DNA from: Octopus vulgaris
Lineage: Eukaryota
DNA length: 64,000 bases
Reading direction: 5' to 3'
Assembly (NCBI GenBank): GCA_951406725.2
Contig: OX597843.1
Coordinates: 13,206,001-13,270,000, forward strand
Shown in pieces: positions 3,342-55,979 of the stretch. The number at the start of each line of letters is the position of its first letter. Positions within the stretch are counted from its first letter, which is position 1. The notes under the pieces were generated by a model that worked only from the letters and a program-made list of their open reading frames with translations, was not told the DNA's origin and made no database searches. The translations under genes and the position numbers were made by a program.

Positions 3342-4345
3342 GGCACAGGAGTGGCTGTGTGGTAAGTAGCTTGCTAACCAACCACATGGTTCCGGGTTCA
3401 GTACCACTGCGTGGCACCTTGGGCAAGTGTCTTCTGCTATAGCCACGGGCCGACCAAAGCCTTGTGAGTGGATTTGGTAGACAGAAACTGAAAGAAGCCT
3501 GTCGTATATATGTATATATATATGTATGTATATATATAGGTGCAGGAGTGGCTGTGTGGTAAGTAGCTTGCTAACCAACCTCATGGTTCCGGGTTCAGCC
3601 CCACTGCGTGGCACCTTGGGCAAGTGTCTTCTGCTATAGCCACGGGCCGACCAAAGCCTTGTGAGTGGATTTGGTAGACAGAAACTGAAAGAAGCCTGTC
3701 GTATATATGTATATATATATGTATGTATATATATAGGCGCAGGAGTGGCTGTGTGGTAAGTAGCTTGCTAACCAACCACATGGTTCCGGGTTCAGTCCCA
3801 CTGCGTGGCACCTTGGGCAAGTGTCTTCTGCTATAGTCACGGGCCGACCAAAGCCTTGTGAGTGGATTTGGTAGACAGAAACTGAAAGAAGCCTGTCGTA
3901 TATATGTATATATATATGTATGTATATATATAGGCACAGGAGTGGCTGTGTTGTAAGTAGCTTGCTAACCAACCACATGGTTCCGGGCTCAGTCCTACTG
4001 CGTGGCACCTTGGGCAAGTGTCTTCTGCTATAGTCACGGGCCGACCAAAGCCTTGTGAGTGGATTTGGTAGACAGAAACTGAAAGAAGCCTGTCGTATAT
4101 ATGTATATATATATATATATGTATGTGTATATGTCCGTGTGTCTGTGTTTGTCCCCCTAGCATTGCTTGACAACCGATGCTGGTGTGTTTACGTCCCCGT
4201 TACTTAGCGGTTTGGCAAAAGAGACCGATAGAATAAGTACTGGGCTTGCAAGGAATAAGTCCCGGGGTCGATTTGCTCGACTAAAAGGCGGTGCTCCAGC
4301 ATGGCCGCAGTCAAATGACTGAAACAAGTAAGAGAGTAAGAGAGA
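3342..4345 (+). mobile_element. SINE family A with four tandem heads
   Basis: Heads start at 3342, 3539, 3736 and 3933 (period 197), followed by one tail. Confidence 0.9.
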
Positions 4346-7639: not shown

Positions 7640-8055
7640 AGGCGGCGAGCTGGCAGAATCGTTAGCACGTCAGGCGAAATGCGTAGCCGTATTTCGTCTG
7701 CCGCTACGTTCTGAGTTCAAATTCCGCCGAGGTCGACTTTGCCTTTCATCCTTTCGGGGTCGATAAATTAAGTACCAGTTACGCACTGGGGTCGATGTAA
7801 TCGACTTAATACCTATGTTTGTCCTTGTTTGTCCCCTCTTTGTTTAGCCCCTTGTGGGTAATAAAGAAATAGGTATTTCAGCTGCCGTTATGTTGTGAGT
7901 TCAAATTCCGCTGAGGTCGACTTTGCCTTTCATCCTTTCGGGGTCAATAAATTAAGTACCAGTTACGCACTGGGGTCGATGTAATCGACTTAATACCTAT
8001 GTCTGTCCTTGTTTGTCCCCTCTGTGTTTAGCCCCTTGTAGGTAGTAAGGAAATA
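7640..8055 (+). mobile_element. SINE family B with duplicated 3' part
   Basis: GGCGGCGAGCTGGCAGAATCGTTAGC head, GAGTTCAAATTC B box, central GCCTTTCATCCTTTCGGGGTCGATAAATTAAGTACC (resembles the Meta-SINE domain, from memory), tail ...GCCCCTTGTGGGTAATAAAGAAATA. Confidence 0.85.
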
Positions 8056-8071
8056 GGATAGGTTTGGAAGT

Positions 8072-13182: not shown

Positions 13183-14235
13183 GTAAGTCACTATATTCTA
13201 CTTGGTGACAAGGAAGGGGCAGTGTCCACTTATTAAAATCCTGACATTCGTCCCCTTTGTCTTCTGGACAAATCTTACTCAAAGAAGATGTTGGGAGTGG
13301 AGCCTGGAGACTGCAGAAGGGCAGGGGTGAAGCAGTGCTTGTATACTCTGCATGTGTGTGTGTGTGTGTGTGTATGTGTGTAATGAACTGCTTATGTTAT
13401 GGGCCCAGGCGTGGCTGTGAGATGAACATGTTTGCTTTCCAGCCAAATGTTCTCCAGTTCAGTCCCACATGCTTGGCACCTTGAGCAAGTGTCTTCTAGT
13501 ACTGCACGAGGCCAACCAAAGCTTTGTGAATGGATTTTGTAGTTGGAAACTGAAAGAAGCCCATCATACACACACACACACACTAAGCCATGTGTGTGTG
13601 TGAGAGTGTATATCTAATATATGAATGGCAATTCCTGTCTGTCTGTTACCATCTTAGTGCCTAAACTAGCAAACTAATATTCATGAAACTTCACATACAT
13701 GTTACACTAACATCCAGTTCAATAACAGATTAATTGGCTTTCAATAAAAATCTATAATGTGCCCCCCCCACAAGGCGTTGGGTGAATTATATGATAAAAT
13801 GAGAAGGTTGCAAAAAGTATTAGTTGGAGGAAAAGGTAGTAGTAGAGTGAGGGTGACTTATATCAGTGAAGGTGAGAACAGCAGTGGCAATGGGATAATA
13901 ACATTAATACAGCTGTCATATACATGTGACGCTGGATACATACTTTTGTAAATACTTACATACAATACTCACACAGATACAGAGAAAAAGGTGGATGTGA
14001 GGAATATGCAGCTTTAAGGAGAGATGGCTTTTCTGCTGCCCATCTCAGAGAAACACTCACACACATATACATATATACATACATGCATGTGTCGACTATA
14101 CACCATTTTAAACTCGTGACTACCTGTATGCACATCTGAAATTTGTGTGTGTGTGAGAGAGAGACATCCTATAACTTTGTGTCTCTCTACTTTTGTAGGA
14201 TCTTCCCTGGAGCTGTTACATTGTGAGATTAAAAA

Positions 14236-14700
14236 AGTCGACCTCGGTGAATTTGAACTCAGAACGTATAGACAGACGAAATACCTATTTCTTTACTACT
14301 CACAAGGGGCTAAAGACAGAGGGGACAAACAAGGACAGACAAACGGATCAAGTCGATTACATCGACCCCAGTGCACAACTGGTACTTAATTTATCGACCC
14401 CGAAAGGATGAAAGGTAAAGTCGACCTCGGCGGAATCTGAACTCAGAACGTAAAGACAGACGAAATACCTATTTCTTTACTACTCACAAGGGGCTAAAGA
14501 CAGAGGGGACAAACAAGGACAGACAAACGGATCAAGTCGATTACATCGACCCCAGTGCGCAACTGGTACTTAATTTATCGACCCCGAAAGGATGAAAGGT
14601 AAAGTCGACCTCGGCGGAATTTGAACTCAGAACGTAAAGACAGACGAAATACCTATTTCTTTACTACTCACAAGGGGCTAAAGACAGAGGGGACAAACAA
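14236..14700 (-). mobile_element. SINE family B tandem ~180-bp units
   Basis: Repeated B-box-to-tail segment, flanked by a ~220-bp direct duplication. Confidence 0.9.
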
Positions 14701-14916
14701 GCAATGCTAGGGGGACAAGTCGATCAAGTCGATTCAAGGAGAGATGGCTTTTCTGCTGCCCATCTCAGAGAAACACTCACACACATATACATATATACAT
14801 ACATGCATGTGTCGACTATACACCATTTTAAACTCGTGACTACCTGTATGCACATCTGAAATTTGTGTGTGTGTGAGAGAGAGACATCCTATAACTTTGT
14901 CTCTCTACTTTTGTAG

Positions 14917-14942
14917 GATCTTCCCTGGAGCTGTTACACATT
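14917..14942 (+). other. Candidate exon 4 (26 nt; 24-nt duplicate at 14199-14222)
   Basis: Acceptor ctctctacttttgtAG, donor ATT|GTGAGA. Confidence 0.45.
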
Positions 14943-15256
14943 GTGAGATTAAAAATTTTGTCATAATTTTCAAATTTGGTATCATCATCATCATCATCAA
15001 CATTTAATATCCCCTTTCCATGCTAGGATGGGTTGCACGGTTTGTCTGGGGTCTGGGAAGCCAGGAGGCTGCACCAGGCTCAGGTCTAATCTTGCAGTGT
15101 TTCTACATCTGGACGCCCTTCCTAACGCCAACCACTCCAAGAGTGTAGTGGGTGATTTTTTATGTGCCACCGGCACAGGGGCCAGAGGGGGCTGGCATTG
15201 ACTATGATCAGATGGTGTTTTTTACGTGCCACCAGCACAGAAGTCAGTCAAGGTGC

Positions 15257-15328
15257 GGCTCGTTGGTCTAGGGGTATGATTCTCGCTTTGGGTGCGAGAG
15301 GTCCCGGGTTCCAATCCCGGACGAGCCC
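15257..15328 (+). tRNA. tRNA-Pro(TGG), possibly a retrocopy or pseudogene
   Basis: 72-nt GGCTCGTTGGTCTAGGGGTATGATTCTCGCTTTGGGTGCGAGAGGTCCCGGGTTCCAATCCCGGACGAGCCC; canonical metazoan tRNA-Pro except T-loop TTCCAAT (normally TTCAAAT); TTTT at 15334-15337. Confidence 0.93.
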
Positions 15329-15338
15329 ATAAATTTTA

Positions 15339-15728
15339 GGCGCAGGAGTGGCTGTGTGGTTTGCTAACCAGCCACATGGTTCCGGGTTCAGTCCCACTGC
15401 GTGGCATCTTGGGCAAGTATCTTCTGCTATAGCCTCGGGCCGACCAATGCCTTGTGAGTGGATTTGGTAGACGGAAACTGAAAGAAGCCTGTCGTATATA
15501 TGTATGTGTGTGTGTGTGTGTTTGTGTGTCTGTGTTGTCCCCCTAGCATTGCTTGACAACCGATGCTGGTGTGTTTACGTCGCCGTCACTTAGCGGTTCG
15601 GCAAAAGAGACTGATAGAATAAGTACTGGGCTTACAAAAGAATAAGTCCCGGGGTCGATTTGCTCGACTAAAGGCGGTGCTCCAGCATGGCCACAGTCAA
15701 ATGACTGAAACAAGTAAAAGAAAGTAAG
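15339..15728 (+). mobile_element. SINE family A directly downstream of the tRNA
   Basis: Full-length family A with a short deletion in the head. Confidence 0.9.
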
Positions 15729-15856
15729 TGGCACTGGTATTGGCCACGTTTGAAATAATTTTCCAAGTTAAATCCAATTTTGTTTTTTATTTGTTCCTAG
15801 CATCCAGCTGAATTATAGGTAGGGAAAAGAGTACTCAAATACCAGAGGTAGAGTAA

Positions 15857-15986
15857 TATGCTTTATTTAAAAGCAGCAGAAATATAACAAAAGCTGATAC
15901 TCAGAGTTTCACGTTCCGATGAATGGTAACTTGAAACTCTGAGTAACAGCTTTTGTTATATTTCTGCTGCTTTTAAATAAAGTATA
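15857..15986. repeat. 55-bp inverted repeat containing a hammerhead-like motif
   Basis: Arms 15857-15911 and 15932-15986 with 2 mismatches. Confidence 0.9.
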
Positions 15987-16035
15987 TATATGTATGTATA
16001 TATATGTGCTTACTCCGATATATTAAATATATATA

Positions 16036-17170
16036 TATTTCTTTACTACCCACAAGGGGCTAAACACAGAGGGGACAAACAAGGACAGACAAACGGATCA
16101 AGTCGATTACATCGACCCCAGTGCACAACTGGTACTTAATTTATCGACCCCGAAAGGATGAAAGGTAAAGTCGACCTCAGGGAATTTGAACTCAGAACGT
16201 AAAGACAGACGAAATACCTATTTCTTTACTACTCACAAGGGGCTAAAGACAGAGGGGACAAACAAGGACAGACAAACGGATCAAGTCGATTACATCGACC
16301 CCAGTGCGCAACTGGTACTTAATTTATCGACCCCGAAAGGATGAAAGGTAAAGTCGACCTCGGCGGAATTTGAACTCAGAACGTATAGACAGACGAAATA
16401 CCTATTTCTTTACTACTCACAAGGGGCTAAAGACAGAGGGGACAAACAAGGACAGACAAACGGATCAAGTCGATTACATCGACCCCAGTGCGCAACTGGT
16501 ACTTAATTTATCGACCCCGAAAGGATGAAAGGTAAAGTCGACCTCGGCGGAATTTGAACTCAGAACGTATAGACAGACGAAATACCTATTTCTTTACTAC
16601 TCACAAGGGGCTAAAGACAGAGGGGACAAACAAGGACAGACAAACGGATCAAGTCGATTACATCGACCCCAGTGCGCAACTGGTACTTAATTTATCGACC
16701 CCGAAAGGATGAAAGGTAAAGTCGACCTCGGCGGAATTTGAACTCAGAACGTAAAGACAGACGAAATACCTATTTCTTTACTACTCACAAGGGGCTAAAG
16801 ACAGAGGGGACAAACAAGGACAGACAAACGGATCAAGTCGATTACATCGACCCCAGTGCGCAACTGGTACTTAATTTATCGACCCCGAAAGGATGAAAGG
16901 TAAAGTCGACCTCGGCGGAATTTGAACTCAGAACGTAAAGGCAGACGAAATACCTATTTCTTTACTACTCACAGGGGGCTAAAGACAGAGGGGACAAACA
17001 AGGACAGACAACGGATCAAGTCGATTACATCGACCCCAGTGCGCAACTGGTACTTAATTTATCGACCCCGAAAGGATGAAAGGCAAAGTCGACCTCGGCG
17101 GAATCTGAACTCAGAACGTAACAGCAGACGAAATACGGCTACGCATTTCGCCTGGCGTGCTAACGTTTCA
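16036..17170 (-). mobile_element. SINE family B concatemer (six ~180-bp 3' units, one head)
   Basis: Near-identical units joined at AAAGAAATA|GGTATTTCGTC (minus strand). Confidence 0.9.
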
Positions 17171-24382: not shown

Positions 24383-26077
24383 CATATATATACATATAAA
24401 TACATATATATACATATATATATACATATATTTTTCATTTAATTTTTGAGAGCAGTCAGGTTCATTTTTAGTATTCTCGTTTGTGAGAGCATTCGAGTTT
24501 ATTTCAGATATTCTCATTTTAAAAATCATGTCCAGCTAATCATTGAGAGGACATTGGCGTTGCCTTGGCAGAGGTTTGCACTCTCTGAGTAATCTTGTTA
24601 TTATTATTATTGAGAGAGCAGTGCGTGCCATCAAAGCGACACTGGGGTAAAATATACGAAGCCCAGTATACCCATCATGACTACCCGTCTGATAAGGGTA
24701 CACTAGGCACATGCATCACAACCATATGTGTACAACATGGTGATCTCATATCAAGATACACAACACATGACCTTGCAGGTGAGGGCCCAGTTAGAATTTT
24801 CTTTAGGTCGTGTTGTCCATCCTGCTCAAAAGGTCTCTGAATAAGGGTTGTTGAAGGATGATGAACAAAACACCAATGTTTCCGGGAGTGAATTATTCAA
24901 ATTATCGTTATCATCATCATTATTATTATTATTACTATTTTAAGGTGGCGAGCTGGTAAAATCATTAGTACACTGAACAAAATGCTTAGTGGCATTTCGA
25001 CTGTCACTATATTCATCATCATCATCATCATCATCATCGTTTAACGTCTGCTTTCCATGCTAGCATGGGTTGGACGATTTGACTGAGGACTGGCGGACCA
25101 GATGGCTGCACCAGGCTCCACTCTGATCTGGCAGTGTTTCTACAGCTGGATGCTCTTCCTAACGCCAACCACTCCGAGAGTGTAGTGGGTTCATTCACGT
25201 GCCACCGGCACTAGGGCCAGTCAGGCAGTACTGGCAATGGCCACGCTCAAATGGTGTTTTTTATGTACCACCTGCACAGGTGCCAGTCCAGCGGCACTGG
25301 CAATGACCTCGCTTGAATGTTTTTCCACATGCCACCAGCACAAGTGCCAGTAAGGTGATGCTGGTAATGATCACACTCAAATGGTGCTTTTTACGTGCCC
25401 CCAGCATGGAAACCAGTTAGCTGCTCTGGCAACGATCACACTCAGACGGTGCTCTTAGTGCTCCACTAGCACAGATGCCAGTCATCGAATTTGCTCAGTT
25501 CAAATTCCGCTGGGGCTGAGTTTCTCTTATACCCTTTCAGGATCGATAAATTAAGTACCAGTTAAGTATTGGAGTCAATGTAATCAATTACCCGTCTCCC
25601 CAAATTTCAGGCCTTGTGCCTATAGGAAAAAGGGTTATTATCAAGGCATACATTGTGGGTGTTAAACAAGCACAAAGACACACCTAAGAAATTTGGTGGC
25701 ATTGGGTGGGTCAGCACACCCGATACAGCAACCACCATATGCCACTGATGGGTAGATGGGTGGATACATACATACATACATACTTGGACAGACAGATAGA
25801 TAGATAAATAGATAGACAGACACATGCATACATATATACATACTTAGACAGACAGACAGATGGACGGATGGACGGATGGATGGATGGATAGAAAGACAGA
25901 CAGATAGACAGACAGATATATCAACAGAAAGACAGATAGATAGAGATAGATCAATCGATAGATAGATAGATAGATAGATAGACAGATATATCAACAGACA
26001 GATAGACAGATAGATAGACAGAAAGACGGACTGATATATAGATAGACAGGCAGAGTGATAGATAGATAGATAGATAC

Positions 26078-37343: not shown

Positions 37344-38952
37344 AATTATTGTATACAGTGCTCAGGTGCACCACAACTTGTCAAAAAGTGCGTATAAAGT
37401 ATATGCAGTAATGTACAAATGTCTGGAAAGCGAACAATGTATGAGTCAGATACTTGCTTGTGTGTGTATGGAGGGGGGAAAATCAGGTGTAGTGTTGGCG
37501 AATATCAGAAAGCATGGAAGTTTTGAAGGATGCAGTGCTCCGACAACTAACAACTGATGCTGGCAGTTTGTTCCATGCTTCAGAGTGTGTATGGAGGGGG
37601 GGAAATCAGGTGTAGTGTTGGCAAATCTCAGGAAGCATGGAAGTTTTGAAGGATGCAGTGCTCCGACAACTAACAACTGATGCCGGCAGTTTGTTCCATG
37701 CTTCAGCAACTCTCACCGTGAAAAAATGTTTCCTAAAGTCATGGGAGCTGTGCTGTTTTCTGACTTTGTAAATATGTCCACGGGTGTTAGACAGGTGGAG
37801 TTTGAAAAGGTGCTCAGAGTTATGGTTTGTAAGATGGTTAATAGTTTTATGGGTGTCTGCCAAGTCAGCTGCCAGACGTCGGAGTTTCAATGTGTCCATG
37901 CCCAGGGAAGTAAGGCGTTCAGAATATGGCAAATGCCTGATGGAGGGTATTCTCTTGGTTGTCGGATACATGCTTGTGTATGTATGGAGGGGGGAAAATC
38001 AGGTGTAGTGTTTGCGAATCTCAGGAAGCATGGAAGTTTTGAAGGATGCAGTGCTCCGACAACTAACAACTGATGCCGGCAGTTTGTTCCATGCTTCAGC
38101 GTGTGTATGGAGGGGGGAAAATCAGGTGTAGTGTTGGCAAATCTCAGAAAGCATGGAAGTTTTGAAGGTTGCAGTGCTCCGACAACTAACAACTGATGCC
38201 GGCAGTCTGTTCCTTACTTCAGCAACTCTTAGCGTGAAAAAATGTTTCCTTTTTATTTTTCACAATTGGTAGTATACCATAATACTGCCAGGTATCTAGT
38301 AATTCTAAGAGTGAACGAGTTCTATTTTAATAATAATGAAATTATTGTATACAGTGCTCAGGTGCCCCACAACTTGTCAAAAAGTGCGTATAAAGTATAT
38401 GCAGTAATGTACAAATGTCTGGGAAGTGAACAGTGTATGAGTCAGATACATGCTTGCGTGTGTATGGAGGGTGGAAAATCAGGTGTAGTGTTGGCAAATC
38501 TCAGAAAGCATGGAAGTTTTGAAGGATGCAGTGCTCCGACAACTAACAACTGATGCCGGCAGTTTGTTCCACGCTTCAGCAACTCTCAGCATGAAAAAAT
38601 GTTTCCTAAAGTCATGGGAGCTGTGCTGTTTTCTGACTTTGTAAATATGTCCACGGGTGTTAGACAGGTGGAGTTTGAAAAGGTGCTCAGAGTTATGGTT
38701 TGTAAGATGGTTAATAGTTTTATGGGTGTCTGCCAAGTCAGCTGCCAGACGTCGGAGTTTCAATGTGTCCATGCCCAGGGAAGTAAGGCGTTCAGAATAT
38801 GGCAAATGCCTGATGGAGGGTATTCTTTTGGTTGTCAGATACATGCTTGTGTGTGTATGGAGGGTGGAAAATCAGGTGTAGTGTTGGCGAATCTCAGGAA
38901 GCATGGAAGTTTTGAAGGATGCAGTGCTCCGACAACTAACAACGGATGCCAG
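37294..38952 (-). mobile_element. CR1-clade LINE 3' ends, tandemly reiterated
   Basis: TKRIPSIRHLPYSERLTSLGMDTLKLRRLAADL...TRGH.YKV...FRKHFF..RV.EAWNKLP in ORFs 37606-37971 and 38479-38844; (TTA)n tail. Confidence 0.9.
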
Positions 38953-42790: not shown

Positions 42791-44279
42791 AGCATACAAT
42801 GGCATACATAAACGGCATTATTATTACCATTGTTGCTGCTACTACTATTGTTGTTGCTGTTGTTGTTGTCGTTGCTATTGTCGTTTGGTTTGGTTCGGTA
42901 CATCTGGCCGACCTACAGCTCACCTGGTACTTGTCCCCACCTTAGGAATATTACTGTGTGTGTGTGTGTGTGTGTGTGCTTTCATGTGTGTATACTCTTT
43001 ACTCTCTTTTACTCTTTTACTTGTTTCAGTCATTTGACTGCGGCCATGCTGGAGCACCGCCTTTAGTCGAGCAAATCGACCCCAGGACTTATTCTTTGTA
43101 AGCCCAGTACTTATTCTATCGGTCTCTTTTGCCGAACCGCTAAGTGACGGGGACGTAAACACACCAGCATCGGTTGTCAAGCAATGCTAGAGGGACAAAC
43201 ACACACACACACACATATATATATATTCTCTTATTATTTTATTTGTTTCAGTCATTTGACTGCGGCCAAGCTGGAGCACCGTCTTTTAGCTGAACAAACT
43301 GACCCCAGGGCTTATTCTCTGTAAGTCTAGTACATATTCTATTGGTCTTTTTTGCTGAACCACTAAGTGCAACAAAAGACCCTTCTTCTTTGCAAAATCA
43401 CTAACTGCAAGCAGGGCCATCGCTAAGCCCCTGCAAAACCCTGTGGTCACAGGGGGCCTTTGCGGTTGAGGAGCCCCATGTTAAGATCAAAGTACGTAGA
43501 TGAGTCATCTATTTATTTCTCCTCTAGGCACAAAGCCCAAAATTTTTCAGGAGGGGGCCCAGTCGATTAGATTAGATTGACCCCATTACACAACTGGTAC
43601 TTAACTTATCAATCCCTAAAGGATGAAAGGCAAAGTCAACCTCGGCAGAATTTGAACTCAGAACGTAAAGACAGGGGGCCTTTGCAGTTGAGGGGCCCCA
43701 TGTTAAGATCAAAGTACATAGATGAGTCATCTATTTATTTCTCTTCTAGGCACAAAGCCCAAAATTTTTCAGGAGGGGGCCCAGTCGATTAGATTAGATC
43801 GACCCCATTACACAACTGGTACTTAACTTATCGACCCCTAAAGGATGAAAGGCAAAGTCAACCTCAGCAGAATTTGAACTCAGAACGTAAAGACAGACGA
43901 AATACCATTAAGCATTTTTACTTTGGTTGAACAAGAATTAAACTATATTAACTATATTAGTGAAGGCAGTGAGCTGGCAGAAACGTTAGCACACCGGGTG
44001 AATTGCGTAGCCGTATTTCGTCTGCCGCTACGTTCCGAGTTCAAATTCCGCCGAGGTCGACTTTGCCTTTCATCCTTTCGGGGTCGATAAATTAAGTACC
44101 AGTTACGCACTGGAGTCGATGTAATCGACTTAATCCCTTTGTCTGTCCTTGTTTGTCCCCTGTGTTTAGCCCCATGTGGGTAGTAAAGAAATATATATTA
44201 ACTGAAAAATTTCAAAAAATAAAATGGTAATACATGTTACCTGCAAAAGTTCTTGTAAAAATATTACATTGTACCACGA

Positions 44280-44836: not shown

Positions 44837-45211
44837 CGAGTTTGATTCCAGGCAGTGACCTGAATAATAATAATATCAAAAAATACCTTAGGAATGAGAA
44901 CCCAGATTTGAAATTTCCCTAAGACACCTGATGAAGGCTAGAGAGTATTCTTTTATTTGTTTCAGTCATTTGACTGCAGCCAGGCTGGAGCACCACCTTT
45001 TATTTGAACAAACCGACCCCAGGGCTTATTCTTTGTAAATCTAGTATTTATTCTATCGGTCTTTTTTCCGAACCACTAAATTCAGAAGAGCCTCTTCTTT
45101 GCAAGTTCTGCTTACCAAAAGTGGCCGAAACGCTGTGTTGACAACAAACAAGATGAGGACAAATATCCGTCAAATGTAAATAATGTAAATAATTCCTCAT
45201 CTCTGAAATAT

Positions 45212-45596: not shown

Positions 45597-46475
45597 ATTC
45601 TCTGAAATATAGAACAGACCTGAATATATTGTTGTGCTTCAAAAGATGTTCTTTAGGATAACTTCAGATAGAATAAAATAAAATATAGCTAGGAATTAAA
45701 AGTGCGTAGATTATGAATCTTGATGGAAGGGATGGGGCCTTGAAACAAAATGTTGCAGGGGCCTCTAGAAGTCAGGTGACAGAGGTGGCTGCAAGTGAGC
45801 CATCACCTCTCCTACCATGGTGTCAGTCAGACAACTGGATGCTGTATACATCGCTGATCACAATGCATTTTTGTATTGATTTAGCCTTTGGATGATGCCA
45901 CCCCACTGGCCAGGCAAACAGACCAATGTACCCAGAGATGGGAAGGCTAGTCTATCGCAGGGTGAGCCTTGTAAAGCGAAGTGGAGTGGAGTGGAGCTAG
46001 GTGGAATGAAGTGTTTTGCTCAAGGACACATTGTACCACCCAGTCTGGAAACTGAACCCACGTCCTTGCAATCGTGAATGCAATACCCGAACCATTAGGT
46101 CATGCACCTTCACACACACACACACACAGATATATCATCATCATCATCATCATCATCGTTTAACATCTGTTTTCCATGCTGGCATGGGTTGGATGATTTG
46201 ACCAGGGCTGGTAAGCTGGAAGGTTGCACCAGACTCCAGTCTGATCTGGCAGTGTTTCTACAGCTGGATGCCCTTCCTAATGCCAACCACTCCGTGAGTG
46301 TAGTGGGTGCTTTTTACGTGCCACCGGCATAAGGGCCAGAGGAGGCTGGCAAACGTCCACGATCGGCTGGTGCTTTTACATGTCACTGACATCGACGCCA
46401 GTCAGGCGGCGCTGGCATCTGCCACATTTGGATGGTGCTTTTTACGTCCCACTGGCACAGGTATCTTAACTACAC

Positions 46476-46689
46476 TCTCTTTACTCTCTTTATACTTGTT
46501 TCAGTCATTTGACTGCGGCCATGCTGGAGCACCACCTTTAATAGAGCAACTCGACCCCGGGACTTATTATTTGTAAGCCCAGTACTTATTCTATCGGTCT
46601 CTTTTGCCGAACCGCTAAGTAATGGGGACATAAACACACCAGCATCGGTTGTCAAGCGATGCTGGGGACAAACACAGACATACAAACAT

Positions 46690-46740
<51 letters not shown>

Positions 46741-47143
46741 TATGACGGGCTTCTTTCAGTTTCTGTCTACCAAATCCACTCACAAGGCTTTGGTCAGCCC
46801 GAGGCTATAGTAGAAGACACTTGCCCAAGGTGCCACGCAGTGGGACTGAACCCGGAACTGTGTGGTTGGTAAACAAGCTACTTACCACACAGCCACTCCT
46901 GCGTCATGTTTCCATTTGATTTTTATTTTGATGTTGGTGTTGATGTACTTGACTCAATAGGTCTCCTCAAGAGCAGCGGATCACTCTAGGCTTCTTTCAG
47001 TTTCCATCTACTAAATCCACTCACAAGGCTTTGGTCAGGCCGAGGCTGTAGTAGAAGACACTCACCCAAGGTGCCACGCAGTGGGACTGAACCTGGAACC
47101 ATGTGCTTGGGAAGCAAGCTACTTACCACACAGCCACACCTGC
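46476..47143 (-). mobile_element. SINE family A copies
   Basis: Match to other copies. Confidence 0.85.
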
Positions 47144-55475: not shown

Positions 55476-55974
55476 GATTGATTCTAGTTTCAGCTTATGA
55501 GCTGTGGCCATGCTGGGGCACCGCCATTTGGTGTTGCTACTTGGTTTCACTTCATGGAGGCTTTCTAGCAACTGCTATTTGGTGCATGAGAGAGTTCGAT
55601 GCAGCTGCCCTCATCTGCCCCTCCTGCCGTGAAGTTGGTTCATCTGGGACACCTGACAGGAAGAGATCCAGCTCCATTTTAAAGACACATCCACCCCATG
55701 CAGGTCTCTCAGGTTCTTCGGGAGGATATTGAAGAGCTGTGGGCCTCGGAAGCCCAGGCTATCACAGAATCTTGTCCTACATCTTGATGGCAAGTTTGGT
55801 GTCCTAGGCACCACGCAGTGGCGCCCAGTTCTGGCATTTGCGTAACTCTCGATGCCAAAGTTCAGGACACTTCCCTCCAGGATCTTCCAGATGTATATTA
55901 TGGCATATCTTTCCCGCCTACGCTCCAGGGAATATAATTTTAATCTCTTGAGTCTTTCCCAGTAGCTTACATTC

Positions 55975-55979
<5 letters not shown>
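55476..55979 (-). mobile_element. CR1/L2-group LINE 3' fragment
   Basis: SYWERLKRLKLYSLERRRERYAIIYIWKILEG...RTGRHC...GPQLFNILPKNLRD, a frameshift, then FKMELDLFLSGVPDEP and a 3' UTR. Confidence 0.85.

Follow-up and report, generated by a model that had tools for sequence, protein, structure and literature searches.

The locus described here raises the question of how a complete tRNA-Pro sequence came to lie a few bases ahead of a full-length SINE within a dispersed repeat of another family, whether the two arrived together, and by what copying route they were joined. The window, by which we mean the whole 64,000-nt stretch that was analysed, is repeat-rich animal DNA, and all of the sequence evidence is drawn from it. 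The parts of the locus, together with a LINE fragment elsewhere in the window that bears on its origin, are as follows.

14981-15252, minus strand: left part of the host repeat, a member of family C, with a (TGA)n-type tail at 14981-15003 (about 80% identity to family C copies; orientation inferred from the simple-repeat tail)
15253-15256, plus strand: four nucleotides between host and tRNA, purine first (sequence; the host alignment stops at 15252)
15257-15328, plus strand: complete tRNA-Pro(TGG) without CCA (ARAGORN; Rfam)
15329-15337, plus strand: nine A/T nucleotides, a putative trailer, ending in TTTT at 15334-15337 and hereafter called the T4 (T-run scan; comparison with other SINE A events; background frequencies)
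15338-15728, plus strand: full-length SINE of family A, with LINE-like 3′ hairpins at about 15672-15707 (alignment with nine other copies; divergence; folds)
15349-15359, 15360 and 15385-15395, plus strand: A box, position after which a 7-bp deletion falls, and B box of the tRNA-like head of SINE A (alignment with nine other copies)
15726-15728, plus strand: final AAG, common to the target, closing the rear parts of SINE A (internal TA/TG repeat, hairpins and tail)
15729-15766, minus strand: resumed part of the family C host, in register (register and local alignment against paralogues)
55484-55979, minus strand: 3′ end of a 5′-truncated LINE of the endonuclease/reverse-transcriptase type, whose last 50 nt are common with the SINE A tail

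The left part of the host is about 80% identical to the family C copies at 25018, 46137, 39652 and 10311. The resumed part is short, about 37 nt, with a local alignment score of 30 for the best of six paralogues against a maximum of 28 in 300 shuffles; taken by itself the right flank lies clearly above all shuffles for only one of the six, and the claim that the host is continuous therefore rests on a test of register. The 24 nt beginning at 15729 match the paralogues at 25018 and 46137 at 18 of 24 positions at offset 0 and at no more than 8 of 24 at the other offsets from −4 to +4, and a score of 18/24 was reached at only 4 of 127,976 positions on both strands, one of the four being the locus itself. 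The comparison is with family C paralogues in the window and not with an orthologous empty site. Judged against these two paralogues, the target runs continuously across both tRNA and SINE, giving a single insertion site for the pair, and because the right part resumes in the same register as the left, the host appears to have lost nothing at the insertion. AAG is the only word common to both outer junctions and may just as well be the last bases of the SINE tail as a target duplication. The break at 15252, the resumption at 15729 and the limit of 3 bp on any duplication, all proposed in an initial annotation made from the letters of the stretch, are thus borne out.

The tRNA is the single tRNA gene that ARAGORN finds in the 64 kb, tRNA-Pro(tgg), and it matches Rfam RF00005 over the full model with 53.8 bits (gathering score 29), in keeping with its earlier description as a complete tRNA-Pro(TGG) lacking CCA. 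CCA is absent from the 3′ end and extra bases flank the mature tRNA on both sides, which rules out a retrocopy of mature tRNA. In the T loop, position 57 (15312) carries C against a purine in the Rfam consensus, and this is presumably the single deviation from the tRNA-Pro usual in animals. A single non-canonical base among the 72 agrees with neutral decay of 2–5% (P 0.58–0.13) and so with the age of the SINE. The four bases at 15253-15256 are read as the 5′ leader of a pre-tRNA, with untemplated bases as an alternative; if they were instead part of a 7-bp target duplication since decayed, two of its 7 nt would have to have changed at about 4% divergence, and this was judged by eye to be less likely than a leader. 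The nine bases at 15329-15337 would correspondingly be the 3′ trailer of the pre-tRNA with its oligo-U end. The present-day copy probably has no selected role. If the tRNA is transcribed despite the C at position 57, some transcripts would stop at the T4 and others would cross the SINE, which contains no T4 run of its own in the T-run scan, to the T runs that the same scan places downstream at 15759-15788.

Compared with the majority of nine other copies, this copy of SINE A carries 13 substitutions in 348 columns (3.7%), four of them private, and on this count it appears to be much younger than the family C host. In its 5′ end and in the two promoter boxes, labelled A and B after the general consensus, it is the same as the other copies, and the damage is a 7-bp deletion between the boxes that is unique to this copy, gaps of at least 5 bp being found in none of 15 other SINE A heads. 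The head had earlier been called damaged; that is correct as to the deletion, and does not extend to the 5′ end or to either promoter box. An A precedes all 11 of the 5′-intact SINE A heads in the window (seven independent events), for which reason the SINE probably starts at A15338, and what had been taken as a 10-nt spacer is better divided into a 9-nt trailer and an A that probably belongs to the SINE. Folds of three SINE A heads were no better than those of shuffled sequences, and the head pattern gave no matches to metagenome contigs. Octopus tRNA-derived SINEs named OK, OR1 and OR2 were reportedly described by Ohshima and Okada in 1994; SINE A is like them in being a tRNA-headed SINE of an octopod-type genome, and its middle may resemble a CORE domain; it is assigned to none of the three. 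OR1 is classed as a CORE-SINE in PMC4824008.

The tail of SINE A points to a partner. The last 50 nt align to the LINE 3′ end at 55484-55528 (minus strand) with a score of 54, compared with a shuffle maximum of 29, and the same two predicted hairpins are present in the SINE A and LINE 3′ ends, the second with different paired bases and the folds with a modest z of about −2. SINE A thus falls among LINE-partnered SINEs, with a 3′ end common to a LINE of the same genome and a predicted structure that is conserved. The window holds only the C-terminal 98 amino acids of this LINE; its frame is 88% identical to residues 889–986 of P0001 (1033 aa, PF00078 and PF14529, that is, reverse transcriptase and endonuclease), relatives carry both of these domains, and the nearest named relative of the fragment at 55686-55979 (minus strand) is a protein of the octopod Argonauta hians at 69% identity, on which ground the genome is taken to be that of an octopod. 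Searched with the 98-residue piece, Pfam returned no family and the Atlas unnamed clusters only; a motif suggests that the LINE may belong to the CR1/L2 group. Since its 3′ hairpins are common to SINE A, the LINE family of 55484-55979 is the probable source of the reverse transcriptase that mobilises SINE A. Several rearranged copies of the C-terminus of another LINE-like reverse transcriptase, with 123-bp tandem duplications, occupy 37462-38900 (minus strand).

We consider it likely that the tRNA and SINE A were inserted together in one event. First, the host resumes without a gap and no host or other DNA separates the two parts, which lie on the plus strand in the same orientation, 9 nt apart. 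Second, all four boundaries are those expected of RNA ends: 4 nt before the mature tRNA, the end of the T4, the A that precedes intact heads, and the SINE tail. Third, a second insertion at the exact position and strand of the junction has a chance of about 0.5–1.3 × 10^−4 per copy at the SINE density of the window. With a seamless host, the SINE tail at the 3′ boundary, a 5′ boundary just before the mature tRNA and no CCA, the single retrotransposed unit proposed at the outset is supported. The target duplication around the pair is at most AAG, possibly part of the tail; none of the eight other SINE A events has a clear duplication, and the missing long duplication is thus no argument against a single event. 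Platypus U6/L2 chimeras are described in PMC4476161 as having duplications of 1–9 bp (72.5% of 40 U6 chimeras), and according to work cited in PMC6007223 the tail of CR1, L2 and RTE elements overlaps the target by one to several bases. The account in PMC4476161 also describes U6 copies made by L2- and RTE-clade LINEs as occurring only as template-switch chimeras, among them U6 with Mon-1 and with AnolisSINE2, and takes a U6atac/Alu pair that has an extra A and lacks a duplication as possibly the product of two independent events; unlike that extra A, the A at the tRNA-SINE junction is common to the SINE A family.

If a single event is accepted, its route must be read from the inner junction. 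The T4 touches the first base of the SINE, A15338. In the tandem-repeat-masked window TTTT precedes an A at 152 of 18,692 sites (0.8%), and TTT precedes TA at 152 of 4,111 (3.7%). A T4 within 12 nt upstream of the head is found in none of the eight other SINE A events, and is therefore not a habit of the family; a T does precede the A in four of six other independent intact heads, so that one T of the four may belong to the SINE side. A target preference of the RTE type, in which a T stretch lies about 10 nt upstream of the duplication (PMC6007223), is not favoured as the source of the T4, which abuts the head, has no duplication beside it and is lacking in the eight other events.

The explanation that we prefer, while giving it no better than an even chance, is that an end-to-end template jump from the SINE RNA to a terminated pre-tRNA produced a chimeric retrocopy as a one-off. 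The weights that we attach to this and to the three competing explanations are judgements and not computations. The protein of the partner LINE would bind SINE A RNA by its 3′ hairpins, and the enzyme would nick within the family C repeat and prime on the SINE tail with a 3-nt AAG overlap. Reverse transcriptase would then copy the SINE to its first base, jump to the oligo-U 3′ terminus of a pre-tRNA-Pro that had been terminated but not processed and copy this to its transcription start, after which the product would be joined to the host with no loss and a duplication of at most 3 bp; slight later decay would have produced the 7-bp deletion and perhaps the change at position 57. A jump and transcription through the terminator lead to the same expectation for the outer ends, and can be told apart at the inner junction. 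That junction lies exactly at the end of the T4 and the start of the SINE, which a jump predicts directly and read-through obtains only by coincidence or selection, and it is on this ground that the jump is favoured.

There are published precedents. A non-LTR reverse transcriptase, the R2 enzyme, jumps between templates in vitro (PMC8594491), and template jumps or switches have been invoked for U6 with Mon-1 and AnolisSINE2 (PMC4476161), for the 5′ extensions of SINEU (PMC4494074) and for PittSINE (PMC5729268). The preference for capturing U6 is tied in part to its Pol III oligo-U end and its nuclear location (PMC4476161), and by analogy a pre-tRNA, which has both, might be captured in the same way. 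Several points tell against the jump. First, four T's would also fit read-through, or would call for a longer terminator in the source, given that in human cells a T4 is reported to have ended only 18–75% of transcripts, mostly after two or three U's (PMC5725217). Second, the unique promoter-region deletion speaks slightly for a source copy that had ceased to need a promoter of its own. Third, the human tRNA/L1 chimeras described in 10.1101/2025.02.02.635956 are few, at 21 loci, and consist mostly of antisense halves, so that capture of a full sense tRNA starts from a lower prior.

Read-through, the route put forward in the initial annotation, we regard as rather unlikely though the strongest of the competitors. 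In the version considered here, insertion of SINE A into the T run of a source tRNA-Pro gene would have shortened that run to the T4, Pol III would have passed through it, and the joined RNA would have been retrotransposed by means of the SINE tail. This gives the same outer boundaries as a jump, and the deletion in the promoter region would be tolerable in such a source. Only insertions in or before the T run would yield a joined RNA, and a junction at that point would then be partly selected. Read-through also requires that a SINE had already inserted no more than about 10 nt from a tRNA gene, at about 0.05–0.13% per gene at window density, and none of the eight other SINE A events lies behind a T4. 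Ordinary 3′ processing of a pre-tRNA cuts off downstream sequence and would separate the tRNA from the SINE. No sibling of the joined unit is present in the 64-kb window (0 other copies). With a T4 that is leaky (PMC5725217) and no T4 run inside SINE A, read-through is to that extent allowed; its difficulty is a junction placed exactly at the end of the T run and the start of the SINE.

We consider it improbable that a pre-tRNA retrocopy and a SINE A inserted at this point independently of each other, whichever came first. In favour of two insertions, the pair is not bracketed by a long duplication, SINE A is dense in the window, with 18 head matches in 64 kb, its copies usually begin after TA, solo tRNA retrocopies exist in mammals (PMC2912911; PMC5322556), and L1-Tx1 elements are reported to be active in Octopus vulgaris (PMC13282606). 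Against this, the second arrival must strike the exact junction and leave no host or trailer on the far side, which has a chance of about 10^−4 per copy, and the trailer sequence is not duplicated directly after the SINE tail.

An extension of the read-through idea is that the locus is one of many copies from a master locus, where a genuine tRNA-Pro gene had its terminator shortened by SINE A and would now drive the promoter-damaged SINE, and a nascent tRNA-SINE dimer subfamily would be spreading near-intact, transcribable tRNA-Pro genes through the octopod genome; we hold this to be quite improbable. A dimeric SINE family would be expected to have no Pol III terminator between its monomers, and here the T4, possibly leaky, stands between the two parts. 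A SINE family in the SINEBase definition has at least about 100 dispersed copies (PMC3531059), and the joined unit has one copy in 64 kb. The earlier suggestion that the locus illustrates a route for dispersing tRNA genes has that one copy as its basis.

Weakest of all is a DNA-level event (gene conversion or repair-templated capture) or an assembly join that placed a functional tRNA gene here, which we think very improbable. In its favour are the near-perfect state of the tRNA, the SINE arrays and local duplications of the neighbourhood and, weakly, the public runs, the best of which contain only 0.58 of the sampled words of 14700-15960; the run data (20 of 24 listed with part of the stretch, three with at least half its words) count neither for presence nor for absence. 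Against it, a captured segment is not expected to end 4 nt before a tRNA and at a SINE tail or to leave the host in register.

As a structure, the tRNA-SINE unit resembles the chimeric retrocopies formed between small RNAs and retroposons: the two parts are joined directly in the same orientation and occupy one insertion site. Pre-tRNA and tailless retropseudogenes are said to have been treated by Schmitz in 2004, a work cited in PMC4476161 and PMC2912911. The closest likenesses are U6-Mon-1 of platypus, U6-AnolisSINE2 of lizard, and U6/L1 and U6/Alu of human, in which a sense Pol III RNA likewise lies 5′ of a LINE-mobilised element in one insertion (PMC4476161). In these U6 chimeras too the duplication is very short where the LINE recognises a 3′ structure, and they differ from the present unit in the captured RNA, which is U6 rather than a whole pre-tRNA (PMC4476161). 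The 3′ partner here is a full-length SINE, in contrast to platypus U6-L2, described in the same source as mostly 5′-truncated U6 on a short L2 (PMC4476161).

Comparisons with SINEs that have gained 5′ sequence are also instructive. The 5′ extensions and additions of SINEU place RNA-gene sequence before a complete SINE head and are ascribed to a template switch or jump, as we propose here; they recur and have founded families, whereas the tRNA-SINE unit is one known copy with a terminator between its parts (PMC4494074). For PittSINE it has been proposed that a CR1 enzyme, while reverse-transcribing SINE RNA, switched to a tRNA, a step like the one suggested above, and yet PittSINE lost its old head and amplified, while the present unit keeps the whole old head and is seen once in the window (PMC5729268). 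Head replacement, which had been suggested for this locus, is accordingly set aside: only 7 bp are missing from the old head, between the boxes, and the T4 stands between tRNA and SINE. The tRNA is instead a 5′ addition to the SINE.

Chimeras of tRNA with LINE-1 and tailless tRNA copies share with the present unit a tRNA, sometimes a precursor, copied by a LINE enzyme (10.1101/2025.02.02.635956; PMC5322556). The human tRNA/LINE-1 chimeras are mostly antisense halves with duplications of 9–19 bp (10.1101/2025.02.02.635956) and the tailless copies are 3′-truncated and solo (PMC5322556), whereas the tRNA here is full length, in the sense orientation and with its terminator kept. What is unusual at this locus is the combination of a full-length, sense, precursor-like tRNA with an intact SINE 5′ end. 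No pre-tRNA joined to a full-length cephalopod SINE was found in the literature searched, most subscription papers being outside the search.

Were the template jump correct, the locus would preserve, as a clean fossil, the capture of an entire nuclear pre-tRNA by a LINE enzyme at the extreme 5′ end of a SINE RNA, and would represent, in a mollusc and not a vertebrate, a step that has been proposed for the birth of dimeric and re-headed SINEs. As a single copy of a known type of event it changes no model. Near-perfect tRNA copies inside repeats can inflate counts of tRNA genes.

Several other arrangements of SINE A and its neighbours were noted in the window. SINE A forms multi-unit arrays in which several head-plus-TA units precede one tail, with four units at 3342-4340 (plus strand) and two at 33064-32491 (minus strand). 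Units differ at 3–8 of 160 bases inside an array and at 8–20 between loci, and since the differences within arrays are below those between loci, each array probably derives from one template. Headless 3′ halves of SINE A are present at 43013-43369 and 44948-45079 (both minus strand); a similar motif of about 25 nt stands before two of them and is absent from full-length copies, which suggests a second family with the same tail. At 46137-46905 (minus strand) a family C element starts no more than about 15 nt after a SINE A tail and in the same orientation, possibly another joined pair.

To the left of the locus a 223-bp direct duplication, 98% identical (14013-14235 and 14733-14955), brackets a 2.5-unit array of a 184-bp SINE-like unit (14234-14701) and about 30 unrelated bases; the pair may have arisen as a target duplication of unusual length, by tandem duplication or through assembly. 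It was considered as a source of a paralogous empty site, and stops at 14955, short of the host. The same 184-bp unit also forms head-to-tail arrays of six copies at 16036-17136 and of two at 7689-8057. Four units of the six-copy array differ at 0–2 bases, and the array therefore appears to be either very recent or an expansion introduced in assembly. Between this array and the locus, at 15856-15987, lies a 132-bp inverted repeat, 91% self-complementary and MITE-like, which occurs as a single copy in the window.
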